DNA of 64,000 bases from Candidatus Daviesbacteria bacterium (GCA_030699125.1 JAUYKM010000009.1:108647-172646), one strand, 5' to 3'; positions 7,607 through 55,294 are shown, numbered from the stretch's first letter. A program made the numbers and translations. Notes: generated from the letters alone by a model not told the origin.

Positions 7607-7630
7607 CTAACAGTATCCGCGTATCTTTCT

Positions 7631-28538: not shown

Positions 28539-28546
28539 TCATCATA

Positions 28547-31788: not shown

Positions 31789-31824
31789 AAATTAGCTTTT
31801 ATCTTTCCAAATTGTTAACATTAA

Positions 31825-34877: not shown

Positions 34878-36462
34878 CTTAATTAAGATATTATTAATCC
34901 TGATATTGATTCTTTCCGCCGTTGTTCGGATTTATCGTTTAGATAGTGTTCCTCCCTCAATCTCTTGGGATGAGGCAGCAGTAGGTTACAATGCCTGGAC
35001 GATCAGTGAGTATGGCAAAGATGAGTATGGGAAAAGCTTTCCCCTAACATTTAAATCTTTTGGAGATGATAAACATTCTGTCCACATTTACTTAACTGCC
35101 ATTTCTGTAAAACTTTTCGGTTTATCTGAATTTACTACTAGATTGCCAGCTGCCCTTTTTGGAATTTTCAATATCTTCTTAATATTTTATTTAGGCAAAT
35201 TGCTTTTTAGAAATGAGTGGATAGGAATTATGGCAGCAGTATTTCTTGCCATTTCACCATACCATATCCAATTTTCCAGATTTAATCATGAATTAAACTT
35301 TGCATTATTTTTCTTTTTATTGGGATTAATAACATTTATTAGAGGATTAGAAGGAAGAAAATGGTTACTTACAGCCTCATTTATTAGTTTTGGATTAGAT
35401 TTGTTAAGTTATCATAGTGCTAAGGTAGTTGTTATTCCCTTCATATTAATCTTAATATTGATGTATTTTCAAAACCTTTGGAAAATGAGGATTTATTTTT
35501 TCTTGGGTATAGTTTTTCTACTATTTTTTTTGGGGCTAATTTTTTTAAATCCTACTTTGTTGGGTATAGCAAGGGCAAAACAAACTGCTCTTCCTCAGTC
35601 AGATATTAATGATACCAAGCTTTATAAATTTTTTCAAAATCAATACTTAGGTTATTCAGAAAGATTAGTTCAAAATTACCTGTCTCATTTTAATCCGGAA
35701 TATTTATTTATTAAGGGTGGAGAAAATACTAAATTTTCTACTCACCAAGTTGGGGAATTTTATAAGATTGACGCCCTTTTCTTATTAGTAGGTTTTTTAG
35801 CTTTAGTATTAAAAAAAACAAGGACATCAATAATTTTGCTTTCTTGGGCTTTACTAGCACCGATTCCTTCTAGTTTAACTAACGAAGCTCCTCATGCAGG
35901 GAGAGCACTATATATGATGGGAAGTTGGCATCTAGTCTCAGTATATGGTTTTTATATAATTTTTACCAAATTAAAAGGTAGAAAATTTATGCATAGCTTA
36001 ATAGCAGTAACCTTTTTTATTTTGTTTATTTCATTTATAACTCATCTAAAATATTATTTTGAAAAATATCCTAGGGAAAATGCAATCGACTGGCAATATG
36101 GAATGAAACAAGTAGTAGAGTTTATTAAGACTAGTCCTCAATATAATTATATATACATGACAGATAGTAGATTTCAACCTTACATCTTCTTTTTGTATTA
36201 CCTGAAAACTCCGCTACCTGAATATTTATTGAGAGTCGTTTATAATAATTCGGAAAGCAAAAGTTATAGTATGGTATCTTATTTTGATAAATATTTTTTT
36301 GGAGGATGGGATACAGCAGAAAGTGTGCCACAAAAGGACGTATTATATATCTTAACTCCTTATGAGTACGATGGTTTAAAATATAAAAGTAAATTTGATA
36401 TAAGAAAGAAAGTTCAATATCCTAACGGAATTGACGCTTTCTTTATAGTGAGTGGAAACTAG
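34867..36462 (+). CDS. GT39/PMT_2-like membrane glycosyltransferase, 6 of 6.
   Basis: It carries 'PPSISWDEAAVGYNAWTISEYGKDEYGKSFPLTF', 'SPYHIQFSR' and 'EAPHAGRAL'. The start is placed at the ATG at 34867 (MKNNLIK), not at 34792, because the 34792 ATG would overlap the upstream gene by 86 nt. Confidence 0.65.
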   Translation: MKNNLIKILLILILILSAVVRIYRLDSVPPSISWDEAAVGYNAWTISEYGKDEYGKSFPLTFKSFGDDKHSVHIYLTAISVKLFGLSEFTTRLPAALFGIFNIFLIFYLGKLLFRNEWIGIMAAVFLAISPYHIQFSRFNHELNFALFFFLLGLITFIRGLEGRKWLLTASFISFGLDLLSYHSAKVVVIPFILILILMYFQNLWKMRIYFFLGIVFLLFFLGLIFLNPTLLGIARAKQTALPQSDINDTKLYKFFQNQYLGYSERLVQNYLSHFNPEYLFIKGGENTKFSTHQVGEFYKIDALFLLVGFLALVLKKTRTSIILLSWALLAPIPSSLTNEAPHAGRALYMMGSWHLVSVYGFYIIFTKLKGRKFMHSLIAVTFFILFISFITHLKYYFEKYPRENAIDWQYGMKQVVEFIKTSPQYNYIYMTDSRFQPYIFFLYYLKTPLPEYLLRVVYNNSESKSYSMVSYFDKYFFGGWDTAESVPQKDVLYILTPYEYDGLKYKSKFDIRKKVQYPNGIDAFFIVSGN

Positions 36463-38303: not shown

Positions 38304-39449
38304 ATGAAGAAAGATCTCTTAAAAATCATTTATATTTTTTTGACATGGAGAGTGTTATTGATACTTTTTTTATTTTTTGCTATTACATCTGTACCCCTAG
38401 GTTATAAGGATCGTTTTTTAGGGGGAGGAGCTAATCTTTACTCCCTCTCTCCGCAGCTCTTTTCATGGGCTAATTTTGACGGAGAACATTATCTCTCCAT
38501 TGCCTATATAGGTTATAGAGGTTTGGAACAAGCCTTTTTCCCGGTTTATCCTATGTTAATTTCATTTTTGAGTAAACCGTTTGTAAATGATATTTATTCA
38601 TCATTAGTATTTGGAACAGTTGTGGGAATAATTATATCCAGTGTGGCTTTCTTTTTGGCATTAATAATTTTGTGGAAGACAATCAGAATAGACTATTCTA
38701 AAAATATTGCTTTCTTAACACTGACTGCTCTTATATTGTTCCCTACCTCTTTCTATTTCGGAGCGGTTTATAGTGAGTCGATATTCCTACTTTTATCGGT
38801 ACTATCATTCTATTTTGCTAAAAGAAATAAATGGGTAATGGCATCTATTTTTGGCTTTATAGCTTCGGCCACCAGAATCTTTGGATTGCTACTTTTACCC
38901 GCACTGTTAATAGAAGCATATCAGAGGAGAATTCCTTTTAAGAAAATTGTCTGGCTTTTCATTATTCCGTTGGGCCTGGGAGTATATATGTTATATCAAA
39001 ATTTAACAGTGGGGGATCCTTTGGCTTTTTACCATCTACAAAAAATAGTAGGAGAACAACATCAGTCTGGGCTAACTATTCTGCCGCAGGTATATTTTAG
39101 ATACCTTAAAATGCTTTTAACTGTTGATATGGCGAATCCCATCTATCAGACAATTCTATTAGAATTTGTTGTGGGGATAGTATTTTTTCTGCTACCAATT
39201 TACGGATATTTCAAAAAGGTGAAACTGTCTTATCTTTTCTATGCTATGGTAGGTTTTTTACTGCCATCAATTCAGGGTAGTTTTTCATCTGTACCGCGGT
39301 ATGTAATTGTTTTCTTTCCGTCATTTTTGATTATTGCTTTATGGCTTGAAAAATTGCCTCAAGTTTTAAGATTAATTATTTTTTTAGGAATGTCAATTGC
39401 GTTATTTGTAGAAACAACTCTTTTTCTGAGAGGATATTGGGTCGCATGA
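38304..39449 (+). CDS. Polytopic membrane protein, a PIG-V (GPI mannosyltransferase 2, GT76)-like GT-C candidate.
   Basis: 'SWANFDGEHYLSIAYIGYRGLEQAFFPVYPML' resembles the WDaeHfl...GY..E...AFFP signature of the Mannosyl_trans2 family. It has about 9-10 TM helices. Confidence 0.45.
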   Translation: MKKDLLKIIYIFLTWRVLLILFLFFAITSVPLGYKDRFLGGGANLYSLSPQLFSWANFDGEHYLSIAYIGYRGLEQAFFPVYPMLISFLSKPFVNDIYSSLVFGTVVGIIISSVAFFLALIILWKTIRIDYSKNIAFLTLTALILFPTSFYFGAVYSESIFLLLSVLSFYFAKRNKWVMASIFGFIASATRIFGLLLLPALLIEAYQRRIPFKKIVWLFIIPLGLGVYMLYQNLTVGDPLAFYHLQKIVGEQHQSGLTILPQVYFRYLKMLLTVDMANPIYQTILLEFVVGIVFFLLPIYGYFKKVKLSYLFYAMVGFLLPSIQGSFSSVPRYVIVFFPSFLIIALWLEKLPQVLRLIIFLGMSIALFVETTLFLRGYWVA

Positions 39450-40699
39450 AAAGATATATCAAAGAATTAATCACACATCCGTTATTTTCTGGAAGTGCCA
39501 TTATGGTGATTGGAAGCAATGCCATAAACGTTCTCAACTATTTATACCATTTACTCATGGGAAGAATGTTGGGACCTTCCTTTTATGGAGAATTGGCTGC
39601 CCTTATCTCTTTCATGGGTCTTTTGGCGGTCATCCCCTCCTCTCTTAGCTTAGTAATTATCAAGTATGTTTCTGCCGCAAAAAATAAAAAAGAAACGGCC
39701 AGTTTAATAAAATGGCTACAAGCAAGAGGTATCAAAGTGTCAATGATTATGTTTGGTTTTACCTTAATCATATCTCCCATAATTGCCAACTTTTTACATA
39801 TAGGTAAGATTAGTTACTTAATATTAATTGCTGTATCATTTTTATTTTCCATTCAAACTTTAATTAATAGATCAATTCTTCAGGGATTATTAAAGTTTAA
39901 AGAGACAGTGTTGACTATTCTTTCAGAATCAATTGTTAAATTAGCCAGCAGTATGGTGTTAATATTTATCGGGTTTCGAGTAGGCGGAGCTATGTTGGCT
40001 TTAGCAATCTCTGTATTCCTAGGATGGTATATGACAACGGTTTATCTGAAAGGTAGTTTGCAGGGTCAAGGAGAATACTCTCCCAATATTAAAAAGATGC
40101 TGATGTTTAGTATTCCCGTTATATTACAATCATTGGCTACATCCTCCATTTATTCGTCAGATGTACTTTTAGTTAAACACTTTTTTACATCACACGACGC
40201 TGGGATTTATGCTTCCCTTTCAACTTTAGGAAAAATTATTTTTTTTGGGGCTGCGCCAATTGGGTCAGTAATGTTCCCACTTGTTTCCAAAAGACAATCT
40301 CAGGGACAGGATTATAGAAAAATATTTATCTATAGTTTATTGGGTACATCGCTTTTAGCAAGTGGAGTATTGTTAATATATTGGTTATTTCCAGAGCTTG
40401 CTGTCAGCTTACTTTATGGTTCTGCGTATTTAGAGGCTACTAGTCTATTAATTTGGTTTGGAATTTTTATCACTCTTTTTACACTATCATTTCTAATTAT
40501 TAATTATGGGCTTTCGTTGGGTAGAACTTCAGTTGTTATTTTTCCCCTGATTGCTGCCTTTTTACAAATTATAATGATTTGGTTTTATCATCAAACTCTA
40601 CTTGAGGTAATAATTATTTCTCTAGTAATCTCTGCTTTACTACTAGTAAGTTTGATTATATACTCTCTTTATGATTCGGGAGGCTCAAAAAAGAACTAG
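39437..40699 (+). CDS. MOP-superfamily oligosaccharide flippase (Wzx-like).
   Basis: It has 12-14 TM helices. 'GSNAINVLNYLYHLLMGRMLGPSFYGELAALISFMGL' is typical of the polysaccharide biosynthesis / flippase family. Confidence 0.65.
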   Translation: MGRMKRYIKELITHPLFSGSAIMVIGSNAINVLNYLYHLLMGRMLGPSFYGELAALISFMGLLAVIPSSLSLVIIKYVSAAKNKKETASLIKWLQARGIKVSMIMFGFTLIISPIIANFLHIGKISYLILIAVSFLFSIQTLINRSILQGLLKFKETVLTILSESIVKLASSMVLIFIGFRVGGAMLALAISVFLGWYMTTVYLKGSLQGQGEYSPNIKKMLMFSIPVILQSLATSSIYSSDVLLVKHFFTSHDAGIYASLSTLGKIIFFGAAPIGSVMFPLVSKRQSQGQDYRKIFIYSLLGTSLLASGVLLIYWLFPELAVSLLYGSAYLEATSLLIWFGIFITLFTLSFLIINYGLSLGRTSVVIFPLIAAFLQIIMIWFYHQTLLEVIIISLVISALLLVSLIIYSLYDSGGSKKN

Positions 40700-41495
40700 C
40701 CTGATTTCCATAATAGTTCCGGCTTTTAATCAGGAAAAAACCATAGTTCATGATTTAAAAAAAATACATCAAGTTCTTGAGAAACTAAGATATAGCTCTG
40801 AACTTATTTGTGTGGTTGACGGCATGTTGGATAGAACCTTTGAGAAAGCCACCAAGTTTGCCAAAGAATCCCCCCGTATTAAGGTAGTGGGATACGAGAA
40901 AAATAAGGGTAAGGGTTATGCCATACGTTATGGCATAGCGGAAAGTAAGGGGGATATTGTGGGCTTTATAGATGCGGGGATGGATTTAAATCCAAATGGA
41001 TTATCGATGCTTCTTGAGCATTTTGAATGGTACAATGCCGATATTATTGTTGGTTCTAAAAGACACCCTGTTTCTAAGGTGATTTATCCTTGGCAAAGAA
41101 GAGTCCTTTCGCTTGGCTATCAAATTTTAGTAAGATTATTGTTTGGTCTTCGGGTAAGAGACACACAGGTGGGAATGAAATTTTTTAGAAGAGGAGTATT
41201 AAAAAAAGTTTTGCCAAGATTGTTGGTAAAAGAATATGCTTTTGATGTAGAGATGTTGGCCGTTTCCAAATACTTGGGGTTTAATCGAATTTTCGAGGCA
41301 CCTGTAGATATCAAGTTGAGATTTGGGGGAGCATCTACCATTACCAGTCAAAAATTCTTAAGAACAGTCTTGGCTATGTTTTGGGATACTTTGGCAGTAT
41401 TTTATAGGTTGAAAATTCTGAGATACTATTCCGACAAAAATAAGAGAAGATGGAAATTTGACCCGGAGTTAAATTTCAGAATAAATATCGGATGA
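40671..41495 (+). CDS. GT2 polyprenyl-phosphate sugar synthase (Dpm1/GtrB-like; dolichyl or undecaprenyl-phosphate hexosyltransferase).
   Basis: It carries 'ISIIVPAFNQEKTI', 'VVDGMLDRTFEKA', 'EKNKGKGYAIRYG' and 'FIDAGMDLNP' (DXD), plus a C-terminal 'RFGGAS' region. Its 3' end overlaps the downstream GT-C-like gene by 4 nt. Confidence 0.7.
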   Translation: MIREAQKRTSLISIIVPAFNQEKTIVHDLKKIHQVLEKLRYSSELICVVDGMLDRTFEKATKFAKESPRIKVVGYEKNKGKGYAIRYGIAESKGDIVGFIDAGMDLNPNGLSMLLEHFEWYNADIIVGSKRHPVSKVIYPWQRRVLSLGYQILVRLLFGLRVRDTQVGMKFFRRGVLKKVLPRLLVKEYAFDVEMLAVSKYLGFNRIFEAPVDIKLRFGGASTITSQKFLRTVLAMFWDTLAVFYRLKILRYYSDKNKRRWKFDPELNFRINIG

Positions 41496-43387
41496 TTTTA
41501 TTTGACTACATACGTTTCCTTGTATTTTGCTTTCTGATAATTATTCCAGTGGGCGAATTAGTCTTAAGAGTAATAGGTTTTAGGGGCAAGTTTTGGGAGA
41601 CTCTTTTAATAACAACAAATATTGGTTTTATTTTTACTACTCTGGTCGTCTATATTGCGGGTTTAATAGGAATAAATAATATTCTTCCGGCATTAATCCT
41701 ATTACCCTTTTTTCACCTATTAATATTTAGATCTAATTTTTTTGTTAAATTGGTAAGTAAAAAGATAAGTTTAGACATTGTTCTTTTAATTATTATTGCT
41801 GCTGTTGTCATACTACAGGGAGCCCTTAATTTTTATTCAGGCGAAATTCTTCCAGAGGGTATTAGGCTAACAGCAGGACATGCTCATGACAGTTTATGGC
41901 ACATAAGTCTAATAAATAATCTCAAAATACAAATACCTCCGGAAAACCCAATTTATTCAGGGACTTTATTAACTAATTATCATTATTTCACTGATATTTT
42001 TATGGCTTTTGTTTCAAATTTTACGAGTATATCAACTCTTGGCATTTATTTTAAGATAATGGGACCATTTCTGCTTATACTATTTAGCGGTTCGGTTTTT
42101 CTTCTTTCTCTAAGATTGACTGCCAATAAGATTCTCTCCTACATGGCAATTCTTTTAACTGTTCTGAGCAGTAATCTATATTATTTAATAGGAATATTTT
42201 ATGAAAATGCCAAAATTACCCCTTCTGTATTTTGGGTGGATGAATTTGCTACTAGGATGACCAATTTACAGCTTTTGGCATCCTATATAGTCATACTCAC
42301 TGTTCTATACCTAATGCTTATTTTCAGAGAAAAATTTTATATGAAAATCACATTAATCTTATCAATTATCATCTCCTCCCTTTTAGGATTCAAAGCATAC
42401 GGTTTCATACTTATTATGCTATCGTTACTAATTCTTTTTATCTATAGAAGAAGCTTTAATTATTTAAAGCTTAGTTTAGCAAGTATTTTTTTCTCACTTA
42501 TTATTTATAAAAATAGTATCTCTTCAAGCAACTTCCCTTTCATTTTTATGCCCTTTTGGTTTATCAAAAATATGTTTGAGACTGGAGATCATCTAAATTA
42601 CTCAATATGGGAATTAAAAAGACAAACCTATCTTCAGGATAATAACTTTCTTCGTATAGGTACCCTTTACATTGAAGGAATTATAGTTTTTCTTTTAGGA
42701 AATTTAGGAGGAAAAATAGCGGGTTTTTTAACTATATTTCAAAAATATCAAAAAGATAAAATTGATATAATCATAATTCTGACATTGGTATCCGTTTTTG
42801 GAACTTTAATTCCCTGTATCTTTCTCCAAAAGGGAATAGTTTGGAATACCATTCAATTTTTTTATTATTCCTACCTTTCGCTTTCTCTGCTTTTCACACT
42901 TTTTATCTCAAGATTATTGTTAAGAGCAAAACTTATCACATTAATAATTCTCGCCTTTATTTGGGGAACCTTGCTTCCTGGTGTTTTCTATACTTTAGAT
43001 TTATATTCCCCAAATAAATCTTCTATCCAAAACCGCTCAGCTTTAATTGATGCATCTTTTTTTCTTAAGAATCAAGATAAAGGTAATGTTGTGGTAGACC
43101 CTTTATATTATCAGGATTCATTGATTCCGGCTTTATCAGGACAATCAGTATTTATGGCAGATTCAACCCAATTGAATCTCTTGCTTATAAATGATGATGA
43201 TCGGGATAGAGATCTAAGGAATTTTTTTGATGACAAGCTAGAAGAAAATAAATTTAATTTTCTTGAAAATAACAATATTAGATATATAATTTCCAATGAG
43301 GGCAGAATTTTTTTGGATAAAATAATGCAATTAAAAAAAGTTTATTCTAATTCAGAAATTAGTATTTACAAAAATATTTCTAAATAA
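41492..43387 (+). CDS. Family-C polytopic membrane protein (GT-C-like paralog), immediately downstream of a GtrB-like GT2.
   Basis: It carries 'TAGHAHDSLWHISLINNLKIQIPPENPIYSGTLLTNYHYFTDIF' and has multiple TM helices. Confidence 0.55.
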   Translation: MILFDYIRFLVFCFLIIIPVGELVLRVIGFRGKFWETLLITTNIGFIFTTLVVYIAGLIGINNILPALILLPFFHLLIFRSNFFVKLVSKKISLDIVLLIIIAAVVILQGALNFYSGEILPEGIRLTAGHAHDSLWHISLINNLKIQIPPENPIYSGTLLTNYHYFTDIFMAFVSNFTSISTLGIYFKIMGPFLLILFSGSVFLLSLRLTANKILSYMAILLTVLSSNLYYLIGIFYENAKITPSVFWVDEFATRMTNLQLLASYIVILTVLYLMLIFREKFYMKITLILSIIISSLLGFKAYGFILIMLSLLILFIYRRSFNYLKLSLASIFFSLIIYKNSISSSNFPFIFMPFWFIKNMFETGDHLNYSIWELKRQTYLQDNNFLRIGTLYIEGIIVFLLGNLGGKIAGFLTIFQKYQKDKIDIIIILTLVSVFGTLIPCIFLQKGIVWNTIQFFYYSYLSLSLLFTLFISRLLLRAKLITLIILAFIWGTLLPGVFYTLDLYSPNKSSIQNRSALIDASFFLKNQDKGNVVVDPLYYQDSLIPALSGQSVFMADSTQLNLLLINDDDRDRDLRNFFDDKLEENKFNFLENNNIRYIISNEGRIFLDKIMQLKKVYSNSEISIYKNISK

Positions 43388-43388
43388 T

Positions 43389-44498
43389 ATGAATATTCTA
43401 ATCTTATCTTGGAGAGGACCGGGGCATCCACATGCTGGGGGGGCGGAAATTTCAACTCATGAACACGCCAAGGGTTGGATAAAAGCTGGGCATCAGGTAA
43501 CACTCTTCACCTCCTATTATATAGGTGCGAAGAAGGAGGAGAAAGTAGATGGAATTAAAATAATTAGACAAGGTGAGCAAGTTCTAGGAGTACATCTAAG
43601 AGCAATATCCTGGTATCTTTTTGGTAATCACCCCAAATTTGATATTGTAATTGATCAGTTCCATGGGATACCTTTTTTTACACCACTTTATGTCCGAGTA
43701 AAAAAATTAGCTTTTATTCATGAGGTGGCAAAAGATGTTTGGAAAACAAATTTCAGCTTAATTCCTGCAACTTTAGGTGAAGTTTTTGAGTCCTACGTAT
43801 TTAAACTTTATAAAAATATTCCCTTTATGACGGTATCGCATTCAACAAGAGAAGATCTTATTAGTTGGGGGATTCCGGATAAAAATATCACAATCATACA
43901 TAACGGCGTTACAGTTCCTAAAACGCTTAAACCAATGGCTAAAGAAAAGAAAAAGACAATAATTTTTTTGGGGGCCATCAGTAAGGATAAAGGGATTGAG
44001 AAGGCAATTAATGTTTTTTCAATTATTAATAATAAAGAGAGAGATTGGCAATTTTGGGTAGTAGGAAAGTCAGATCAACCATATATGTTAAAGCTCAAGA
44101 GTTTATCAAGAAAATTAGGTCTTTCAAGTAAAATAAAATTTTTTGGTTTTATTTCGGAAGATAAAAAATTTGAATTTTTATCAAAGGCTCATATTTTAAT
44201 AAATCCTTCTATTAGGGAGGGATGGGGGTTGGTGGTAATTGAAGCTGCAAGAATGGGTACACCTACTGTAGCATTTAATGTTCCGGGTCTTAGGGATTCA
44301 ATTATTAATAATAAAACTGGGATTCTCTGTTCTGATAATAGTGTAGAAAATTTAGCCAAAAATATTTTTAATCTGCTGGAAAATAAGAAAGAATATGATC
44401 GGATCAGAAAAAATGCCCTTCTTTGGAGTGAAAACTTTTCTTGGGATAAAGCTGTAAAAAAAAGTTTAGAGCTGATTGAGATGATTGACAAGGGATAG
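43389..44498 (+). CDS. GT4-family (GT-B) glycosyltransferase.
   Basis: The N-terminal 'ILILSWRGPGHPHAGGAEI' and C-terminal 'REGWGLVVIEAARMGTPTVAFNVPGLRDSI' give it away. Confidence 0.75.
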   Translation: MNILILSWRGPGHPHAGGAEISTHEHAKGWIKAGHQVTLFTSYYIGAKKEEKVDGIKIIRQGEQVLGVHLRAISWYLFGNHPKFDIVIDQFHGIPFFTPLYVRVKKLAFIHEVAKDVWKTNFSLIPATLGEVFESYVFKLYKNIPFMTVSHSTREDLISWGIPDKNITIIHNGVTVPKTLKPMAKEKKKTIIFLGAISKDKGIEKAINVFSIINNKERDWQFWVVGKSDQPYMLKLKSLSRKLGLSSKIKFFGFISEDKKFEFLSKAHILINPSIREGWGLVVIEAARMGTPTVAFNVPGLRDSIINNKTGILCSDNSVENLAKNIFNLLENKKEYDRIRKNALLWSENFSWDKAVKKSLELIEMIDKG

Positions 44499-44528
44499 AG
44501 TTTATTTAATAATGGAGGGGCAAAAAAG

Positions 44529-45584
44529 GTGATGAAAAATAAGATACTCGTAACAGGAGCAGGTGGATTTATTGGTCACCATATGGTCAAATTCCTCAAA
44601 GAAAAAGGGTTTTGGGTGAGAGGAGTGGATATTAAGGAGCCGGAATTTGAATCTACTGTCGCTGATGAATTTTTACTTTTGGATTTAAGAGACAAAGAAA
44701 ATACTCTAAAGGTAACAAGAGGTATCGATCATGTATATAATTTTGCTGCCAATATGGGCGGAATTGGCTTTATTGAGACTGTTCATGCTGAAGTAATGAG
44801 GGATAATGTTTTAATTAATACGCATCTTTTAGAAGCATCCCTTATGAATGGAGTAAAGAAATTCTTCTTTGCTTCATCTGCCTGTATTTATCCAAAATAC
44901 CTTCAAGAGGGAGAAGAAAATACTGGTTTAAGAGAATTTAATGCTTACCCTGCTGATCCAGATAATGAATACGGTTGGGAAAAATTATTTACTGAACGCC
45001 TCTGCTATAACTATTGGACAGACTTTGGTTTGGAAACTAGAGTTGCCAGATTTCATAATGTTTATGGACCATTAGGTACTTGGCAAGGTGGTAGGGAGAA
45101 ATCTCCAGCAGCCCTTTGTAGAAAAATTGCAGAGGCAGAAAACAATGGGGAAATTGAGGTTTGGGGAGATGGTAACCAGACAAGATCATATTGTTTTGTA
45201 TCAGATTGTGTAGAAGGGGTATATAGATTGATGAATTCCGATGTAAGAAAACCTATTAATGTCGGATCTGATAGACTGATTTCCATTAATGAAATGATTG
45301 AAATTATTTCACAGATCGCTGGGAAAAATATCAGAAAAAGATATGATTTAACCAAACCTCAAGGAGTACGCGGTAGGAATTCCAACAATGATCTTATTCG
45401 TTATCTATTTGATTGGGAACCTAAGATTCCTTTGGAAGCAGGATTAAAACAGACTTATTTTTGGATTAAATCGCAAATCGATAAAGGAAAATTAATAAAA
45501 AAAAGTAAGGCAAATGGTGAAGATATCCCTAAAAAGAAAGAAAATGCAAGAAAAATTAGGAACAGAAAAGTAATAGTTATATAA
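44529..45584 (+). CDS. GDP-mannose 3,5-epimerase homolog (GME family, NAD-dependent SDR).
   Basis: It carries 'ILVTGAGGFIGHH'. A long near-collinear match to plant and bacterial GME is visible from memory: 'DHVYNFAANMGGIGFI', 'FFFASSACIYP', 'RFHNVYGPLGTWQGGREKSPAALCRK', 'VWGDGNQTRSYCFVSDCVEG', 'PINVGSDRLISINEM', 'QGVRGRNSNNDL' and 'YFWIKSQI'. There is an AGGTG Shine-Dalgarno sequence 4 nt upstream. Confidence 0.8.
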   Translation: MMKNKILVTGAGGFIGHHMVKFLKEKGFWVRGVDIKEPEFESTVADEFLLLDLRDKENTLKVTRGIDHVYNFAANMGGIGFIETVHAEVMRDNVLINTHLLEASLMNGVKKFFFASSACIYPKYLQEGEENTGLREFNAYPADPDNEYGWEKLFTERLCYNYWTDFGLETRVARFHNVYGPLGTWQGGREKSPAALCRKIAEAENNGEIEVWGDGNQTRSYCFVSDCVEGVYRLMNSDVRKPINVGSDRLISINEMIEIISQIAGKNIRKRYDLTKPQGVRGRNSNNDLIRYLFDWEPKIPLEAGLKQTYFWIKSQIDKGKLIKKSKANGEDIPKKKENARKIRNRKVIVI

Positions 45585-45617: not shown

Positions 45618-47990
45618 ATGTTGGATTATTCAACAATCGCTTGGATTAAAATTATAGTTTTTTTGATTCCCATTTGGTTTACAGGAATAATAGTGGTTCG
45701 ATCTATCGTTAAGAGACAGAGAGTCGAGCTGGTCCTTCCTGTAGGCTTAATAGTGGGGCTTTCCCTATATGTTTTTTTCTTAAACAGTTTGTCATATATT
45801 TTAACTCCTCCTTGGAGCATCTTAATCTCTTACATAATTTTTCCCATGATAGGATTTATCTTTTGGAGAGTTTGTAAATTTGATAAGTGGGATTTGCTCA
45901 ATGGTAAGATATTATTCGTCTACCTTTTATCACTTTTATTGTGGACAAGCTTATTCATTTGGAAAGGTAATTTTGCTTTAATTGGAAGCGATACAAATCT
46001 TTATTATTCTGTTGCGCATACATTCTTAAATGGTAATTTCCCTCCCAAAACGCCATGGCAGCCGGATCTATCATTAGTTTATCATCTTGGAACCTTTGAA
46101 CTATTAGGTGCTTTTTATTATTTTACAAATCTCCCGTTTCAATTTCTACATATTTTCTTTTCTGCTATTATGATTCTTGCATGTTCGCAGATTATTATTT
46201 GGCTTTGGAAAAGACATGAGTCCTTCATTTCAGTAACTATAATAAATTTAGCAGTTGCTGTAATTTTTATCAGTTTTGGTTTCTTTAAAATAGTGATTCC
46301 CGTCTTTCCTTTAAAATTTCCAAATATACCCTCGATTCATGAGTTTTTTTTATATATCAGAAACCTGCCTACTGTTAATCAGTCAATTGAAGTATATGGA
46401 GCCGCGATTAATTTGGATGGTCTAATTTATTTCATTTTTCATATTTTTGGAATTTCCATATTTATAGCCCTTTTAGCTTTAGTAGTTAATCTCAAAAAGG
46501 AAACCATATATTTGGGATTTACAGTTTTCCTAATTTGTTTGGCTTCCTTAGCTATTATAAATGAATCATTATTTATTGGAGCCTCCTCGTTAATAGTAAT
46601 AAGTTTAATTTATTTGCTTAAGGAGAAAGTTCTTTTAAAAAAGATTAAATTTGTTTCAGTATCTATCCTGATCTTTGGGGTTATTGTTTTGTTTCAAGGG
46701 GGGGTAATAACGAATATTTTGGTAAAAAATGATGCAATTGAATCATCAATAATTTTTTTTCCAAAGAAAGGCCAAATTGAGGGAGATATAGACGCTTATC
46801 ATCTTCATCAACAAATATCAAAAGCATTAGAAGGAAGAAAAAATTGGTATCCTTTCACTTGGATTCATGTGGGAGTTGATTTGTTAATTCTATTTATAAC
46901 TTTATCCATTACTTTCATAAAATATACATCAAATCAGAGGCTGATAATTTTCGCATTATTTCTTGGCGGAGCCCTTTCTTTAATTGCCTATAATAATATA
47001 GTGCCAAAGCTCTTGGCGGCAAATGGTAACAGATTTTTAGGATTTGCATTTATATTTTTTTCATTAGCATTGCTTTACTCCCTTTCTAACTGGATAGGCA
47101 ATTTTCTGAAAGGAAAATCACCCCTTAACTATTTATTAATAATTATTGTGGTGAGTTGGATTTTCTTACCAACGGTTTTGCCGCCATTGACACTTCTTTC
47201 CAAAACTAGATTTGGAGAAAACAAGCTAATTCCCAACGAGTCAATAAGCAGTCCTGGGATTCTGTGGTTGAGAAATAATGCAAATTTTTCCAACAGAGTA
47301 ATGGTCTTAGATAAAAATGCACCTCATCCCAGTGGTCAGGCGCGTGCTTTAGTTGAAGCAGGAATTTTTGCACCGGTTTTTACTGGTAACTTTAGAGCTT
47401 ATACTATTGAAGCCTCTCCGGAATATATTGATACAGCATATTCATTAAGCCCATTAGCTTTGCAAAAATTACAAATCTCTCTACTGCTAATCGATGCAGA
47501 TTTTTACCAGATGTTGCACCAAAAAAGAAAGATTCAATTAGATGATGATAAATACTTCGAAAAAGTTTTTGACAATTCCAATATGCAAAATAATTGGGAA
47601 AAAATTTATAAGATAAAAAAGGAATACTTAAAAAATGGAGAAGAATTAAGCGGTACCCTGGAAGAATTATCGGAAAAATTACTAAAAAGGGAAAAAATTT
47701 ATATAGACAATGAGGAAAATTTTAAGTATGATTTTTTAAGAAGACCAATCATATTTATGTTAAGAAATAAGGATTTATACTTTAATCCTCAGTCAGGTGT
47801 ATATTTAAATGTTGAGGCAAAAATTAATCAAAGGACCCCCGAAGAAGATATTAAATATGATTTTTTAATTTTGGGAAATAAAACTGACTCACATGAGGTT
47901 TGTGATTGCAGTGCAGAATTGATATGGAGGGGATTAAATGGTCAGGTTTATTTATGGAGGTCGGAGTATTTTGGCAAAGTGGAAAAATAA
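45618..47990 (+). CDS. Large polytopic membrane protein (790 aa) with a C-terminal soluble domain of about 280 aa; family unknown.
   Basis: It has at least 14 predicted TM helices over about 500 aa, then a hydrophilic C-terminus. Its 3' end overlaps the convergent GT2 gene by 43 nt. Confidence 0.45.
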   Translation: MLDYSTIAWIKIIVFLIPIWFTGIIVVRSIVKRQRVELVLPVGLIVGLSLYVFFLNSLSYILTPPWSILISYIIFPMIGFIFWRVCKFDKWDLLNGKILFVYLLSLLLWTSLFIWKGNFALIGSDTNLYYSVAHTFLNGNFPPKTPWQPDLSLVYHLGTFELLGAFYYFTNLPFQFLHIFFSAIMILACSQIIIWLWKRHESFISVTIINLAVAVIFISFGFFKIVIPVFPLKFPNIPSIHEFFLYIRNLPTVNQSIEVYGAAINLDGLIYFIFHIFGISIFIALLALVVNLKKETIYLGFTVFLICLASLAIINESLFIGASSLIVISLIYLLKEKVLLKKIKFVSVSILIFGVIVLFQGGVITNILVKNDAIESSIIFFPKKGQIEGDIDAYHLHQQISKALEGRKNWYPFTWIHVGVDLLILFITLSITFIKYTSNQRLIIFALFLGGALSLIAYNNIVPKLLAANGNRFLGFAFIFFSLALLYSLSNWIGNFLKGKSPLNYLLIIIVVSWIFLPTVLPPLTLLSKTRFGENKLIPNESISSPGILWLRNNANFSNRVMVLDKNAPHPSGQARALVEAGIFAPVFTGNFRAYTIEASPEYIDTAYSLSPLALQKLQISLLLIDADFYQMLHQKRKIQLDDDKYFEKVFDNSNMQNNWEKIYKIKKEYLKNGEELSGTLEELSEKLLKREKIYIDNEENFKYDFLRRPIIFMLRNKDLYFNPQSGVYLNVEAKINQRTPEEDIKYDFLILGNKTDSHEVCDCSAELIWRGLNGQVYLWRSEYFGKVEK

Positions 47991-48673
47991 ACTTTCCAAA
48001 TGGCTTTTAAAACATTAAAACCATCTCTTAAAGCTCTGATTCCTGATGCCCCACCCTTTCTTCTAGTGTAAGTAATAGGAATTTGTACCAGTTTCATCCC
48101 CATTCTACAAGCCTTAGTGACAGTTTCCGCCTCATATTCAAAATGCCTTTCTTTTAAATCCAGGGCTAGAAAAGCATCTTTTTTAAACCCTTTAAATCCT
48201 GCCATCACATCGGTAATTTTTCTGTCACAAGCGATGGATGTAGCCAAAGACATGATCCAATTGCCGAAATAGTTTCTAAAACTAATAGAACCTTTCTCAA
48301 TTTTTCCCTGACCACTAAATCTGGTACCAATTACTACATCAGCACCTTTATCTAATGCCTCAACAAAAAGAGGAATTTCCTGAGGCTGAAATTGATGGTC
48401 AGTATCTATTTGAACAATATAATTGCCTGCTGCAAGAAGTCCACCTGCCCAAAAATCCGCCCCCTTACCTCTTTTAAAAGGAAATCTTAAGATTCTATCC
48501 ACTTTCATCCTTTTAGCAATTTGGATAGTTTCATCCTTGGAGGCAGCATCAACTACGATAATTTCTATTGGAAAAAACTTTTTCAGAACTTTGCAATCCT
48601 TAATAGTCCTACCAATATTTTTTTCCTCATTGTAAGAAGTCAAAATTATACTGACCATTTTTTTTCTTTTCAT
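47948..48673 (-). CDS. GT2 polyprenyl-phosphate sugar synthase (Dpm1/GtrB-like).
   Basis: It carries 'VSIILTSYNEEKNIGRTI', 'IIVVDAASKDETIQIAK', 'KRGKGADFWAGG' and 'IVQIDTDHQ' (DXD). Confidence 0.7.
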   Translation of the reverse strand: MKRKKMVSIILTSYNEEKNIGRTIKDCKVLKKFFPIEIIVVDAASKDETIQIAKRMKVDRILRFPFKRGKGADFWAGGLLAAGNYIVQIDTDHQFQPQEIPLFVEALDKGADVVIGTRFSGQGKIEKGSISFRNYFGNWIMSLATSIACDRKITDVMAGFKGFKKDAFLALDLKERHFEYEAETVTKACRMGMKLVQIPITYTRRKGGASGIRALRDGFNVLKAIWKVYFSTLPKYSDLHK

Positions 48674-48743: not shown

Positions 48744-49775
48744 ATGCCAGAAAAACCAGCAGAATCAAGATGGCTTTATAATCAACCTACTCCCGGTATT
48801 GTAGAGAATTGGTATAGAAGAAATGAGGCTAAGATAAGAAGCCAATGGATTGACCCTAAAATATTAGATGGTGCTTTCATTATGGCAAGTACTGCAGAAG
48901 AGATGAATGGAACGCTTAATTTTAGATATTCGCAAGATAGAGTGGTCATGACTAGAACTGGTTTAGAGGTACCCAGAAGAGATTCACAACTTTATGATGT
49001 TTGGCAAGCTCACAAAAGAGATATGGAAACTAGAGGAGAACGAGATGGGGCAAAATACAGTGTCAGAAGATCCTCTCCATTTCTGACAGATAGTGAACTT
49101 CAGATTGAAGTTTCTGACTTTAGCTGGTCTGGGATGGAACTAAATAATGATGTCAATATAGGCGTACTACCTGAATCATTAAGAGATGGAATATTGCCTA
49201 CCTTAAGATCGGAAGGATACGTTTTTGAGGGTGAACCTCCTAATAATGCAGTTGTCCAAGGTATTATTACCACCAAAGATAAAAAATTAGTTTTAACAAC
49301 AAGAGCTGTTAATGCACAGTATTATCAGGGAACAGTCTCACCCTCTTTTGAGGAGCAAATAGATAGAGATAAAGATGATGATCCTATCGAAACATATTTA
49401 AGGGCTGTCTCATATTCACCGAAATTAAAAAGAGGTGAAGAATTACGACTGAATGTTAGACCCGAAAATATCAGATTAGTCTCTATGGTTTTAGAACCGC
49501 AGTTTAATGCAGTGGGGTTTGTAGTGTTAGGAGTTTGTGAAGAAGAATCCGAGGAAATAGACGAGACTAAGTTTGGGGTGGATAGATCTGAGTTTAATCC
49601 TGAAAAACCAATTTGGACCTTACCATTGGATGAGCCATCTCAACTTCTCAGAGATTTTTATAATCCACAAGGCTTTAGGTGGCATGGAATTGGTAGGGAG
49701 AGAGTGGTAGATGCTCTTGCATCAGTACTTGGTTATGAGGAAGCACTTGATAGATTCTATAAGGCCAGACCTTAA
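48744..49775 (+). CDS. Hypothetical soluble acidic protein of 343 aa; function unknown.
   Basis: It has no TM segment or signal peptide and no motif I recognise. It contains several Cys/Trp and acidic stretches such as 'GVCEEESEEIDE'. It has its own upstream sigma70-like promoter. Confidence 0.5.
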   Translation: MPEKPAESRWLYNQPTPGIVENWYRRNEAKIRSQWIDPKILDGAFIMASTAEEMNGTLNFRYSQDRVVMTRTGLEVPRRDSQLYDVWQAHKRDMETRGERDGAKYSVRRSSPFLTDSELQIEVSDFSWSGMELNNDVNIGVLPESLRDGILPTLRSEGYVFEGEPPNNAVVQGIITTKDKKLVLTTRAVNAQYYQGTVSPSFEEQIDRDKDDDPIETYLRAVSYSPKLKRGEELRLNVRPENIRLVSMVLEPQFNAVGFVVLGVCEEESEEIDETKFGVDRSEFNPEKPIWTLPLDEPSQLLRDFYNPQGFRWHGIGRERVVDALASVLGYEEALDRFYKARP

Positions 49776-49827: not shown

Positions 49828-51156
49828 ATGGACGAGAAAAAAATTGCTATATTTGGGGTAGGCAGAGTAGGACTTCCGCTTGCTTTAGTTTTGGCTGATA
49901 AAGGATTTCAAGTTACGGGAATTGATGTTGATCCCTATAGAATTTCTCTTTTGAAACACAAAATCATGCCTTTTTTGGAAGAAGGGGCACAACCTCTTTT
50001 AGAAAAACATTCTGGTAAAAACTTTCAGATTTTTTCCCAACAACATTTAGATAGGGTAGTATCTGAGAACGATATAATAATTTTAACTTTAGGTACTCCC
50101 ATTGATGATACCTACAGTCCTGACTTTGGTGGAATAGAGGATTTATTAAGAAGTATGGCACCTTCAATAAAGAATGACCATCTAATTATTTTTAGAAGCA
50201 CTTTATCCCCTGGAGCTACTGAACAATTAGCAAGGCAGTTAGAAGAACAGACAAAACTAGAAGTTGGGAAAAATTTATTTATTGTTTATTGCCCGGAAAG
50301 AATTGCTGAGGGAAAATCAGTTGAGGAGTTGGGACAAATCCCTCAAATAATTGGTAGCTTGGATGATGTAAGTGCCAAAAAAGCAGCGGAAGTTTTTGAA
50401 AAAATTGCTCCCAAAATTTTATTTACTAACCCCCGTTCTGCCGAACTTGCCAAATTATTTTGCAATATGTATCGCTATATTGATTTTGCCATCGGGAATG
50501 AATTCATGATGATTGCAGAAGATTATGGATGTGATATTTATGAAGTTTTAAATTTAGTTAATAATGACTATAAAAGGGCTGGGTTAAAAGCTCCCGGCTT
50601 GACTGCGGGTCCGTGTCTTGTTAAGGACGGCTTTTTCCTGATAGATAAGAGCCCTTTTATGGAACTGGTCACGGCAGCATGGAGACTTAATGAGAATATT
50701 CCAGGATATTTACTTTCCAAAATTAAGTCGGAAATTAAGGATTTACACAAGAAGAAAGTGGCTATTTTAGGTTTGGCATTTAAGAAAAATATTGATGATA
50801 TCCGCTATTCTCTTTCTCCAAAAATGCAAAGATATTTTTTAGCAGAAGGGGCAGATGTTTCTGTTTCGGATCCTTTTATAGATTCTAAACCAATCGAGGG
50901 TGCTCTAAAAGGGACAAATATCTTGGTGATTGGTATAAATCATGATATTTATAAAAATTTGGATTTTGGTTATTTAAAAAAATTGGTCTCTGATGATTGT
51001 TTGGTCTGTGATATCTGGAATATCTTTAACACCGGAAAAATCATCTTTTATTTAAAAGATGTGGTTGCTAAATCAGAGGATGGGATTCGATCAAATGGGG
51101 AGGTTAGACCATATAGTAAAAAAAGGAAGGCGGAACGCCCTGGATTAGGTGTATGA
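49828..51156 (+). CDS. Nucleotide-sugar 6-dehydrogenase (UDP-glucose / UDP-ManNAc dehydrogenase family).
   Basis: It carries the N-terminal Rossmann motif 'KIAIFGVGRVGLPLAL', then 'CPERIAEGKSVEEL', 'GPCLVKDG' with the catalytic Cys, and 'GLAFKKNIDDIRYS'. Confidence 0.7.
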   Translation: MDEKKIAIFGVGRVGLPLALVLADKGFQVTGIDVDPYRISLLKHKIMPFLEEGAQPLLEKHSGKNFQIFSQQHLDRVVSENDIIILTLGTPIDDTYSPDFGGIEDLLRSMAPSIKNDHLIIFRSTLSPGATEQLARQLEEQTKLEVGKNLFIVYCPERIAEGKSVEELGQIPQIIGSLDDVSAKKAAEVFEKIAPKILFTNPRSAELAKLFCNMYRYIDFAIGNEFMMIAEDYGCDIYEVLNLVNNDYKRAGLKAPGLTAGPCLVKDGFFLIDKSPFMELVTAAWRLNENIPGYLLSKIKSEIKDLHKKKVAILGLAFKKNIDDIRYSLSPKMQRYFLAEGADVSVSDPFIDSKPIEGALKGTNILVIGINHDIYKNLDFGYLKKLVSDDCLVCDIWNIFNTGKIIFYLKDVVAKSEDGIRSNGEVRPYSKKRKAERPGLGV

Positions 51157-52109
51157 AGACAAAGATACTGGTGACAGGTGGGGCGGGATTTATTGGTAGT
51201 GAGGTTGTAAAACAACTTATTGAAAGAGGGTACCAAGTCAGAGTAGCTGATGATTTATCAAAAAAAGAGGCTAAAGTCCCTAAAGAATGTGAGTTCTTGA
51301 AGCTTGATTTGACTAAAAAAGAAGCAGCGTTACGGGCAATGGAAGGGATAGATTATTGCATACATTTGGCAGCCAAAATTGGCGGGATTGGCTATTTTCA
51401 TAAATATCCAGCAACAATACTTTCCGAAAATAATAAAATGTACTCTGCTGTGTTTGAAGCAGCGGTTGCCAAAAAAATAAAAAGAATTATTTATTTATCC
51501 TCATCCATGGTTTTTGAATCAACTAATAGATTTCCCAGTAAAGAGAGTGATTTGGATAAAATTCCCCCTCCGGTCTCAAGTTATGGTTTCTCCAAATTAG
51601 TGGGGGAGTGGTACTGCAGAGCTTTTAGAGACGAATATGGACTCCCTTACACCATCATAAGACCCTTTAATGCTTATGGCATAAATGAAGCTCCAGGAGA
51701 AGAGATAGGTTATGCTCATGTTATCCCGGATTTAATAAAAAAAATATTGTCTGGCCAATATCCGCTGGAACTTTTAGGAAATGGAAGGCAAACCAGATGT
51801 TTTACTCATGTTTCAGATATTACTAGGGGAATAATACTGGCCATGGAATCTGATAAAGCAATTAATGATGATTTCAATATTGGCTCGGAGAAAGAAATGA
51901 GGATGCTAGATTTAGCAGAGCTACTCTGGCGAAAATGTAATGCAGACAAACCATTTAAAGTTAAATATGTAAAAGGCTTTAAATACGATATTAAAAGAAG
52001 AGTACCATCCTCAAAAAAAACAAAAAAAATATTGAAATGGGAACCCAAAAAGAAATTTGAGCAAGAGTTACCGGAAATTATTAATTGGATTAGTCATAGT
52101 ATTTCTTAA
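51153..52109 (+). CDS. NAD-dependent nucleotide-sugar epimerase/dehydratase (extended SDR).
   Basis: It carries 'KILVTGGAGFIGSEVVKQL', the 'YGFSK' active-site YxxxK motif, and 'RPFNAYG'. Its 5' end overlaps gene 49828 by 4 nt. Confidence 0.75.
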   Translation: MKTKILVTGGAGFIGSEVVKQLIERGYQVRVADDLSKKEAKVPKECEFLKLDLTKKEAALRAMEGIDYCIHLAAKIGGIGYFHKYPATILSENNKMYSAVFEAAVAKKIKRIIYLSSSMVFESTNRFPSKESDLDKIPPPVSSYGFSKLVGEWYCRAFRDEYGLPYTIIRPFNAYGINEAPGEEIGYAHVIPDLIKKILSGQYPLELLGNGRQTRCFTHVSDITRGIILAMESDKAINDDFNIGSEKEMRMLDLAELLWRKCNADKPFKVKYVKGFKYDIKRRVPSSKKTKKILKWEPKKKFEQELPEIINWISHSIS

Positions 52110-53604: not shown

Positions 53605-54111
53605 ATGAAAAGATTAGTATATTTTCTCGCCATCAATTTTTTAATTATACCCTCAATTTTAGTTGCCATTACGCCTAATGTGGTTTATGCGGATGAGATT
53701 GAGGATTTAAAACTGGAGAAGCAACTGGTCAATCCTGACTCTTTCTATTACCCTGCTAAGAGATATATTGAGAATCTACAAAATATGTTTATGTTTTCTA
53801 AAGATAGTAAAGTAAATTTACATAAAAATCTTCTTAAAAAAAGAGCCTCTGAATTAAAGTATATTGTAGAAGATAGGGTTTTATCGGAACTAGAAAGAGG
53901 TTCACAAAGATTTGCTTATCAAGCAGGGATCTTAGTTGAGGAAGCAGAAAAAGATTACACCGAACAAGGTAAGAAGGAAATTAAGGATCAGTTCAGCAAA
54001 TATAAAAAATTACTCGATCAATTGAGAGAAAATTTTAAAGCTAACTCAAGTTTTTGGATGCTAATTCAACAGGATATAGATACACTTGATATACTTTCCG
54101 AAAAGATTTAA
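53605..54111 (+). CDS. Secreted, predominantly alpha-helical protein of 168 aa; function unknown.
   Basis: It has the signal peptide 'MKRLVYFLAINFLIIPSILVAITPNVVYA/DE'. The remainder is charged and coiled-coil-like. Confidence 0.5.
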   Translation: MKRLVYFLAINFLIIPSILVAITPNVVYADEIEDLKLEKQLVNPDSFYYPAKRYIENLQNMFMFSKDSKVNLHKNLLKKRASELKYIVEDRVLSELERGSQRFAYQAGILVEEAEKDYTEQGKKEIKDQFSKYKKLLDQLRENFKANSSFWMLIQQDIDTLDILSEKI

Positions 54112-54114
54112 TTG

Positions 54115-54681
54115 CTATTCCAGATATACCTGGTAAACTCTAAATTTAAGCTCGAATGAAGGATCATAGTTGCTTAAACCAAAAGCTGCTGTTTCATAGT
54201 CTCCCGAAATCCAATTTAGCTTTCTTTCCACAACATCTAGATCTTGGGTTAATAGAACAGTCTTATTAGTATCTTCAGAGCCTATATGGATAGGCTGCCC
54301 ACCAGGACCCCATCCTTTTCTGTAGATTGACAAGAATATATCAAGGGGTTGATTTACACTAATAAGTGCCTTCAGGTTATGTGCCCTATACAATATATAT
54401 TGGGAAATCTCTCCCCTACATTCAATTAAAGGAGTATAAGGAGTTTTGTCCAGATTGATAAAAGTAAATTCTATATAGTTATCCGAGGTAACTAGACCGT
54501 ATTCAGGTACGACTCTACTGGGAAATAGTCTAGTATACTGCCATATAGTGGGATTAGGAATGGCGCATATATGGTAATTGATATTTAAGGGTGCAGGTTT
54601 TATTGGGTCTCCTGTTCTATAGATTATATACAAAAAAAAGAAAACTAAAAGAAAGATAGCAGTATACTTTATGGTTTTCAT
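54115..54681 (-). CDS. Small N-terminally anchored or secreted protein, paralog B (188 aa); function unknown.
   Basis: The N-terminal TM is 'AIFLLVFFFLYIIY', followed by 'GDPIKP'. It has two conserved Cys, 'VNQPLDIFLSIYRKGWGPGGQP' and 'KLNWISGDYE', all shared with gene 54689. Confidence 0.55.
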   Translation of the reverse strand: MKTIKYTAIFLLVFFFLYIIYRTGDPIKPAPLNINYHICAIPNPTIWQYTRLFPSRVVPEYGLVTSDNYIEFTFINLDKTPYTPLIECRGEISQYILYRAHNLKALISVNQPLDIFLSIYRKGWGPGGQPIHIGSEDTNKTVLLTQDLDVVERKLNWISGDYETAAFGLSNYDPSFELKFRVYQVYLE

Positions 54682-54688
54682 TAAAATA

Positions 54689-55294
54689 CTAGTCTAAAAA
54701 GACCGAATATATAGTTATGATTAAATCTTTATTTTCATCAAATTCCTTTGCTCCGATTGATACTGCTTCATAATCTCCAGAGAGCCAATTAAGCCGTTTC
54801 TCCTGTTCGACCTGTCCGCTATCAATTTGCCAATCTAATGTTATGATATTATTAATTTCATCAGTACCAATATCCTGGGGTTGCCAACCGGGTCCCTGGC
54901 CTACTCTATGTATACCGATATCAAACTTTATAGGTTGATTAACCTCCATTTTGATGTTAATTGTTTTAGCGCGGAATAATATTTCTTTTGGGATTCTCTT
55001 TTTGCACTGTATCATGAAATGAGTAGTATCCTTGTAGGTAAACTGGATATGTGATTCCACTTCATCATTAAAAGATTTGGTACTAGAGATCAGGAAAGGT
55101 TTTTTTATTACGTCAACCCAAGAGTTAATATCATTAAGGTCACAAGCGTAAAACCGCTCAGTTAACCGTTGTGGTTTAATTGGGTTGGCAGTAACAAATA
55201 TCGTCCATGTAAACACTATAGTAATTATAATTACTAATAGTTTATTAATTAAGTGAAACCTATTTATTTTCAGTATGCGACTCAAGTACATCAT
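54689..55294 (-). CDS. Small N-terminally anchored or secreted protein, paralog A (201 aa); function unknown.
   Basis: The N-terminal TM is 'LLVIIITIVFTWTIFV', followed by 'ANPIKP'. It has two conserved Cys, 'VNQPIKFDIGIHRVGQGPGWQP' and 'RLNWLSGDYE'. Confidence 0.55.
   Translation of the reverse strand: MMYLSRILKINRFHLINKLLVIIITIVFTWTIFVTANPIKPQRLTERFYACDLNDINSWVDVIKKPFLISSTKSFNDEVESHIQFTYKDTTHFMIQCKKRIPKEILFRAKTINIKMEVNQPIKFDIGIHRVGQGPGWQPQDIGTDEINNIITLDWQIDSGQVEQEKRLNWLSGDYEAVSIGAKEFDENKDLIITIYSVFLD

Follow-up and report, generated by a model that had tools for sequence, protein, structure and literature searches.

A GDP-mannose 3,5-epimerase family gene in a glycosylation island of Candidatus Daviesbacteria

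We analyzed a 64,000-nucleotide stretch of a Candidatus Daviesbacteria genome (GCA_030699125.1 JAUYKM010000009.1:108647-172646), hereafter the window, and focused on a gene in it that encodes a GDP-mannose 3,5-epimerase family member (GME or GM35E). The host belongs to the candidate phyla radiation (CPR/Patescibacteria; Microgenomates) and is represented by a metagenome-assembled genome, and has a G+C content of ~33%. Positions 44529-45584 form one uninterrupted reading frame on the plus strand (351 codons counted from GTG), and the opposite strand of this interval has stop codons throughout. The gene and the signals read at its 5' side are as follows.

44529..45584, plus strand: GME (GM35E ortholog), based on its match to the Arabidopsis thaliana enzyme (AtGME; E=1e-110), signature residues, and Foldseek
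44514-44518, plus strand: Shine-Dalgarno-like GGAGG, 13 nt 5' of the ATG at 44532, read from the sequence
44485-44513, plus strand: promoter-like TTGACA-17-AATAAT, a pattern match only

The ATG at 44532, one codon after the GTG at 44529, is likely the true start of the gene; it is the start used in the NCBI record and in close homologues, and it yields a product of 350 aa. This exact product is NCBI entry MDP3973553.1, encoded on a contig of 360 kb, which is named only as an "NAD-dependent epimerase/dehydratase family protein." Because promoter and terminator matches around the gene are no more frequent than in shuffled controls, the promoter-like match at 44485-44513 is not evidence of function. 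Residues are numbered below with the GTG-encoded valine as 1.

The encoded protein is a member of the GM35E family (CEP1), within the extended nucleotide-sugar short-chain dehydrogenases/reductases (NS-SDRs). When all PDB sequences are searched with phmmer, the top matches, which cover residues 5-322, are GMEs, namely Arabidopsis 2c59, 2c54, 2c5a, and 2c5e and Myrciaria dubia 8sg0 (~1e-110, 371-373 bits), with A. thaliana 2c59 scoring E=1.2e-110 and 373 bits. The best match outside the family is the E. coli GDP-fucose synthase at 1.6e-28 and 103 bits, and other NDP-sugar SDRs likewise fall far below the GMEs. A pairwise alignment with AtGME spans 320 columns at 52% identity. An earlier sequence-only reading had called this gene a clear GME homologue with a likeness far stronger than that of a generic SDR, and both statements are borne out by these searches. 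The motifs on which that reading relied are all found in the translation: FFFASSACIYP (112-122), RFHNVYGPLGTWQGGREKSPAALCRK (174-199), WGDGNQTRSYCFVSDCVEG (212-230), PINVGSDRLISINEM (241-255), and GVRGRNSNN (279-287).

The library scans, taken by themselves, would fit a generic NDP-sugar SDR with a different role, for instance a 4-epimerase of the GalE type or a GDP-L-fucose synthase (GMER/Fcl), and the NCBI name says no more than this. Pfam reports PF01370 (1e-48) and PF16363 only, while the NCBIfam matches are to Fcl, GalE, and LegB, with Fcl (NF047922) at the top. However, all of the NCBIfam matches are sub-threshold, with Fcl at 139.5 bits against a cut-off of 500 and the GalE model TIGR01179 at 83 bits against 262. 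Neither Pfam nor NCBIfam holds a GM35E-specific model, which accounts for the vague public annotation of the protein. The wide gap in PDB scores between the GMEs and Fcl also argues against a generic SDR, as does the lack of a partner GMD (GDP-mannose 4,6-dehydratase) in the window, and the active-site residues described next leave such an identity extremely improbable.

The features that set GM35Es apart from GalE and GDP-fucose synthase have been listed by Beerens et al. (PMC8787198), and in the alignment with AtGME, all of the GM35E-defining residues are kept in the window enzyme. The Gly motif of the NAD+-binding Rossmann fold is TGAGGFIG (G10/G13/G16). The catalytic triad, [ST]xnYx3K, corresponds to S117/Y148/K152 (S143/Y174/K178 in Arabidopsis), and the acid-base pair for C3/C5 epimerization to C119/K191 (Arabidopsis C145/K217); the conservation of Cys145, Lys217, and Tyr174, which the sequence-only reading had proposed as its own check, is therefore seen at C119, K191, and Y148. 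The arginine that acidifies the catalytic cysteine (Arabidopsis R306) is R283, a position at which GMER has lysine. Arabidopsis R243, which binds the diphosphate, and the conserved N203 correspond to R219 and N177, respectively. Across an alignment of 185 sequences from the clade, S143, Y174, K178, N203, and R306 (Arabidopsis numbering) are invariant, and the signature residues overall are invariant or nearly so. A neighbor-joining tree places the window enzyme in a long-branched clade with AtGME, well away from its SDR paralogues in the window. By bit score, Foldseek, and tree alike, the characterized GM35Es are its nearest group among the NS-SDR families.

Both specific alternatives were thus rejected. 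GMER, the closest other SDR family (1BSV/1E6U), also performs a 3,5-epimerization with a catalytic cysteine, but it pairs this cysteine with a histidine base and a lysine helper, catalyzes an NADPH-dependent net reduction, and needs GMD upstream, whereas the window enzyme has lysine as the base, arginine as the helper, and a sub-threshold NF047922 match. GalE lacks the acid/base pair altogether, whereas the window enzyme has it and falls short of the TIGR01179 cut-off. The best matches are neither GalE nor fucose synthases.

The structural comparison agrees with this assignment. An AlphaFold2 model of the protein has a predicted local distance difference test score (pLDDT) of 79.8, and the first 14 Foldseek ranks are all GME chains (E 2.7e-38 to 1.5e-35, TM-scores of 0.78-0.85), followed by a GalE at 2e-24; against 2c54, the TM-scores are 0.83/0.80. 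The SDR core comprises residues 1-322, and residues 323-351 form a tail of low model confidence. This tail (window positions 45495-45581) is rich in Lys/Arg, runs for ~30 residues, and includes KKSKANGEDIPKKKENARKIRNRKVIVI. Disorder is predicted for it (pLDDT <50), and its occurrence is restricted to the GME clade of Daviesbacteria; prokaryotic homologues mostly stop ~25-30 residues sooner. Plant GMEs have a tail of similar length that is unrelated to it.

Compared with the plant enzymes AtGM35E (2C59/2C54/2C5A/2C5E) and M. dubia GME (8SG0/8SKB), the window enzyme has the same extended-SDR fold (TM ~0.8) and an identical triad, Cys/Lys pair, helper Arg, diphosphate-binding Arg, and orange-wall Asn. 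It differs in having a canonical GxxGxxG motif where Arabidopsis has GxxGxxA, in lacking the plant N-terminal extension (~28 aa), and in its basic C-terminal tail. The settings also differ, as the plant enzymes serve ascorbate and cell-wall pathways, whereas the window gene lies in a prokaryotic glycan cluster. The only bacterial GM35E to have been characterized is that of Methylacidiphilum fumariolicum (MfGM35E, I0K0X9), which was shown biochemically to be a true GM35E in 2019 and is ~50% identical to AtGME (PMC6678494). Set beside it by description only, the window enzyme is equally close to AtGME and is likewise bacterial and stand-alone, with the same conserved residues. The MfGM35E gene adjoins a glycosyltransferase (GT) and a methyltransferase, and a role in an envelope glycan or lipopolysaccharide has been inferred (PMC6678494); its host is a Gram-negative verrucomicrobial thermophile, whereas the window gene is in a CPR host and a context dominated by GT-C enzymes.

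Membership in the clade would also accommodate a shifted chemistry, in which the enzyme would chiefly epimerize C5 (as a GDP-L-gulose synthase, cf. BlmG), would epimerize C3, or would act on another GDP-hexose. Single 3- or 5-epimerases in the family have been raised as a possibility (PMC8787198), the product ratio is not fixed by sequence alone, and the clade does diversify, with a nested sub-clade that lacks the Cys/Lys pair. The window enzyme, however, has the full Cys/Lys/Arg machinery for double epimerization, and the Arabidopsis and M. fumariolicum enzymes yield the same product spectrum at a comparable divergence. We therefore view a shifted chemistry as distinctly unlikely.

By homology to AtGM35E and MfGM35E (PMC8787198), a GM35E mechanism can be proposed for the window enzyme. 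Tightly bound NAD+, held at G10/G13/G16, and Y148, assisted by S117 and K152, would transiently oxidize C4 of GDP-alpha-D-mannose. C119 and K191, on opposite faces, would then take up and return a proton at C5 and at C3, whichever comes first, while R283 would lower the pKa of the catalytic Cys; finally, C4 would be re-reduced by NADH. The expected outcome is an equilibrium mix of GDP-Man, GDP-beta-L-galactose, and GDP-beta-L-gulose with a little GDP-D-altrose.

What such a product might be used for is suggested by the surrounding genes. The whole window forms a single, large glycosylation island, in which co-directional genes run from ~23157 to 47990, overlapping or separated by tiny gaps, and include the gene for the epimerase. 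The features most relevant to its role are the following.

39437..40699, plus strand: Wzx-like (Polysacc_synt/MOP) flippase (Pfam PF13440 3e-20, PF01943 4e-18)
43389..44498, plus strand: GT4 glycosyltransferase, GT-B fold, Leloir-type (Pfam Glycos_transf_1 9e-40 and Glyco_transf_4)
45618..47990, plus strand: membrane protein of 790 aa with ~14 transmembrane (TM) segments and a GT-C fold, by structure prediction
47948..48673, minus strand: soluble GT2 of 241 aa (Pfam Glycos_transf_2)
49828-51156, plus strand: nucleotide-sugar dehydrogenase (TIGR03026, 298 bits, above cut-off)
51153-52109, plus strand: second extended SDR, best PDB match a GalE-type epimerase

The sequence-only reading had placed the gene next to a GT4 and upstream of large membrane proteins, and this arrangement is confirmed: the GT4 lies on the same strand 30 nt upstream, and the 790-aa membrane protein gene begins 33 nt downstream. 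This GT4 could be the enzyme that uses the GDP-L-sugar. It precedes the epimerase gene in four related loci (L001, L002, L088, and L089), with a GT2 in between in L088 and L089. The flippase belongs to the same co-directional array and is kept in L001 and L002.

The 790-aa protein has the same sequence as Q8P92_01850 of Candidatus Daviesbacteria (100% identity) and is essentially restricted to Daviesbacteria, with no Pfam family and no match in a PDB sequence search. Structure prediction gives it a multi-pass GT-C glycosyltransferase fold, and such a fold would imply a polyprenyl-phosphate-sugar donor. D125 and D150 are invariant in 35 homologues and are candidates for the catalytic acidic residue that GT-C enzymes have in the first extracytoplasmic loop. 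Convergent with this gene and overlapping its end by 43 nt is the GT2, the best-conserved neighbor of the epimerase (85-90% identity in L001 and L002). This GT2 resembles dolichyl/polyprenyl-phosphate hexose synthases in sequence: it matches the Pyrococcus furiosus Dol-P-Man synthase in the PDB (5mlz, 3e-17), and in NCBIfam it matches AglJ (1e-33) and a Dol-P hexose transferase (1e-18), both below the cut-offs. The order GT4-[GT2]-GME-[790 aa]-GT2 (the last on the minus strand) is found again in the Daviesbacteria relatives L002, L088, and L089, and in L001, the 790-aa gene is missing from the neighborhood. Between the GT2 and the dehydrogenase, the window has a soluble 343-aa open reading frame (ORF; 48744-49775, plus strand) with no Pfam or PDB match. 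This slot is variable, as L001 has there a 249-aa ORF without detectable similarity to the window ORFs (BLAST E<=1e-10).

Going from what is observed (family membership, catalytic residues, fold, and gene context) to enzyme activity, the ratio of products, and what becomes of the L-sugar, we infer with a probability of about 0.82 that the gene encodes a functional, self-sufficient GM35E, which would most likely supply L-hexose to a Daviesbacteria cell-surface glycan or glycoconjugate. The supply role is argued from the embedding of the gene in a co-directional glycan-assembly array, and that L-galactose or L-gulose would enter a surface glycan is our best inference from the GT4, GT-C, GT2, and Wzx-like flippase context. 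One possible route is that the upstream Leloir GT4 would add the L-sugar to a lipid-linked oligosaccharide, which the Wzx-like protein would then flip. A second, more speculative route is that the GT2 would load the L-sugar onto polyprenyl phosphate for transfer by the GT-C enzyme.

Several points weigh against this interpretation. The epimerase activity is argued by homology, and the ratio of L-galactose to L-gulose to D-altrose cannot be predicted from sequence. Confidence in the structural model is low for residues 120-147, which follow immediately on the catalytic Cys, as well as for the C-terminal tail. The GT4 has generic GT4 matches only, with no donor specificity indicated. Finally, no mannose-1-phosphate guanylyltransferase, phosphomannomutase (PMM), or other GDP-Man supply gene is present in the window, its ~9 kb right flank, or its ~1 kb left flank, and no NTP_transferase, PMM, or GMD is seen among the window ORFs or the flanks read (L086 and L087).

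The second route can be extended to a dedicated pathway in which the epimerase, the GT2, and the Daviesbacteria-specific GT-C enzyme together load L-hexose onto a lipid carrier. The GT2 would make polyprenyl-phosphate-L-hexose from GDP-L-galactose or GDP-L-gulose, and the GT-C enzyme would transfer the sugar outside the membrane. A hint in this direction is that GME-like variants with C145L/K217R replacements in related CPR genomes also precede a similar GT2 (~46-47% identity). Und-P-L-Ara4N (ArnC/ArnT) and decaprenyl-P-arabinose (Aft/Emb) are analogues of such a system; to our knowledge, a lipid-linked L-hexose donor of this kind has not yet been described. Literature searches pairing GDP-L-galactose with Patescibacteria found nothing, and those pairing CPR with PMT_2 found nothing relevant. 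We regard this pathway as speculative and unlikely.

A true GM35E could instead feed an ascorbate-like pathway or provide the sugar of a secondary metabolite, with bleomycin and A201A as examples. Bacterial GME homologues do occur in antibiotic clusters: BlmG, 42% identical to AtGME, is the proposed NDP-mannose to NDP-L-gulose epimerase of bleomycin biosynthesis, and GM35E activity has been implicated, for L-galactose, in the biosynthesis of A201A (PMC6678494). By description, these resemble the window enzyme as bacterial GME-family members that supply L-gulose or L-galactose, but the window has no such cluster. It contains no nonribosomal peptide synthetase, polyketide synthase, or nucleoside-antibiotic genes, nor a GDP-L-Gal phosphorylase or an L-Gal dehydrogenase, and every neighbor of the gene is a glycosyltransferase, flippase, or nucleotide-sugar enzyme. 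A use outside the surface glycan is thus very improbable.

Taken as a whole, the island contains ~24 predicted multi-pass membrane proteins, including ~10 PMT_2 (ArnT/PMT-like GT-C) matches along with PIG-V-like, PIG-M/GT87-like, and YfhO-like proteins, two Wzx-like flippases, and several families without Pfam matches. Its soluble proteins comprise GT2s, GT4s, a methyltransferase, nucleotide-sugar dehydrogenases, further SDRs, an oxidoreductase, an ATP-grasp protein, and a HAD hydrolase. The SDR at 51153-52109 was ruled out as a GME, as Met and Ile replace the Cys/Lys pair and its best PDB match is of the GalE type; together with the dehydrogenase at 49828-51156, it is a separate nucleotide-sugar branch of the island. 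A further SDR at 59953-60843 has Asp and Pro at the Cys/Lys positions.

On the plus strand, the interval from 1058 to 36462 is extraordinary for its tandem array of multi-pass membrane proteins that are paralogous to one another. Within it, 2565-9364 carries four paralogues of 552-577 aa (PTPS_related or weak PMT_2), and 16259-17869, 19050-20669, and 27024-36462 carry at least eight PMT_2-type GT-C paralogues with mutual identities of 23-34%. Each paralogue presumably has its own acceptor or donor. Three other paralogous membrane proteins of 1139, 666, and 631 aa (10846-14265, 14262-16262, and 41492-43387, plus strand; 12-14 TM segments, 27-32% identical) have no significant Pfam family, with a weak DUF3863 match for the largest only; one of the three lies two genes upstream of the epimerase. 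A DUF5667 protein (53605-54111), whose gene is found again in the glycosylation islands of L001 and L083-L085, adjoins two single-TM paralogues on the minus strand (54115-54681 and 54689-55294; ~190-200 aa, 30% identical). Near the end of the window (63386-63949, minus strand; L086:11952-12731) is a gene for a 259-aa nucleotide-sugar dehydrogenase that keeps the N-terminal and central domains without the C-terminal UDP-binding domain, and which is either a truncated gene or a pseudogene. As asparagine-synthase-like, GT2, and membrane protein genes follow it, the island extends past the window.

The sequence-only reading had also held that GME is uncommon in bacteria, and in this respect it was mistaken. 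When homologues were surveyed at a threshold of E<=1e-20, all 8000 of the scored candidate clusters qualified, and the best 120 were 65-97% identical to the window enzyme. In GTDB species-representative genomes, a relative is encoded by 511 of the 600 candidate stretches. With identities of 47-78% and E<=1e-105, the best 80 represent the bacterial phyla Patescibacteria, Planctomycetota, Omnitrophota, Margulisiibacteriota, Chloroflexota, Actinomycetota, Acidobacteriota/Aminicenantes, Gemmatimonadota, Verrucomicrobiota, Nitrospirota, and Proteobacteria (e.g. Rhodoplanes roseus) and the archaeal phyla Thermoplasmatota and Micrarchaeota. The closest species genome among them is a Candidatus Daviesbacteria (78% identity; L002). 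The family is therefore widespread in prokaryotes: its close homologues number in the thousands, cover at least 15 phyla, and nearly always lie in gene clusters for polysaccharides. Moreover, a bacterial GM35E had already been characterized, and UniProt listed 18 named bacterial GM35E sequences in 2019 (PMC6678494). The impression of rarity is an effect of annotation rather than of biology.

In other phyla, synteny with Daviesbacteria is lost and only the general polysaccharide-cluster setting is shared. Bac_transf initiating transferases adjoin the GME homologue in 18 loci and WecG/TagA GT26 in 16, in 14 of them directly upstream, and GT4, GT2, and NDP-sugar dehydrogenase genes also occur at these loci. 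The association suggests that this GT26 subfamily may use GDP-L-Gal or GDP-L-Gul. In one locus (L042:1-2151), the upstream WecG/TagA/CpsF (GT26) is fused to a Wzy_C/O-antigen-ligase domain. Four loci, among them L005:12301-15507 (minus strand), have contents consistent with L-galactose/L-fucose salvage beside de novo GDP-L-Gal synthesis.

Nested among the Microgenomates GMEs is a sub-clade, 65-68% identical to the window enzyme, with correlated C145L and K217R replacements (motifs SSAL[IV]YP and GGRERS[WT]AAI). Its members are L082:8001-8993, L083:8001-8987, P0058, P0060, P0066, P0107, P0108, and P0116, while P0075 and P0114 have C145V only. Because the catalytic acid/base pair is replaced, this sub-clade has probably lost the 3,5-epimerase function. 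In both of the contexts read, a 321-aa SDR gene comes next, and further downstream lies the gene for the similar GT2 noted above (232 aa, compared with the window GT2 at 47948-48673), which adjoins the SDR gene in L083-L084 and is two genes later in L082. These loci lie in CPR-style islands that also contain genes for DegT aminotransferases and PMT_2/AftD-like GT-C enzymes.

The assignment corrects a generic public annotation to a specific enzyme, GM35E, and since neither Pfam nor NCBIfam offers a model for it, thousands of prokaryotic GM35Es are likewise left unnamed. No concept is changed by this, as the enzyme family, its mechanism, and its occurrence in bacteria were already known; what is new is an unannotated member of a widespread family in an unstudied lineage. 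More bacterial and archaeal GM35Es have been called for in a review (PMC8787198), and the clade of the window enzyme, together with its Cys/Lys-less variants, offers ready candidates for biocatalysis. For the organisms themselves, the prediction is that Daviesbacteria and many other uncultured lineages would place L-galactose or L-gulose in their envelope glycans, which bears on how episymbiotic or ultra-small cells present their surfaces.
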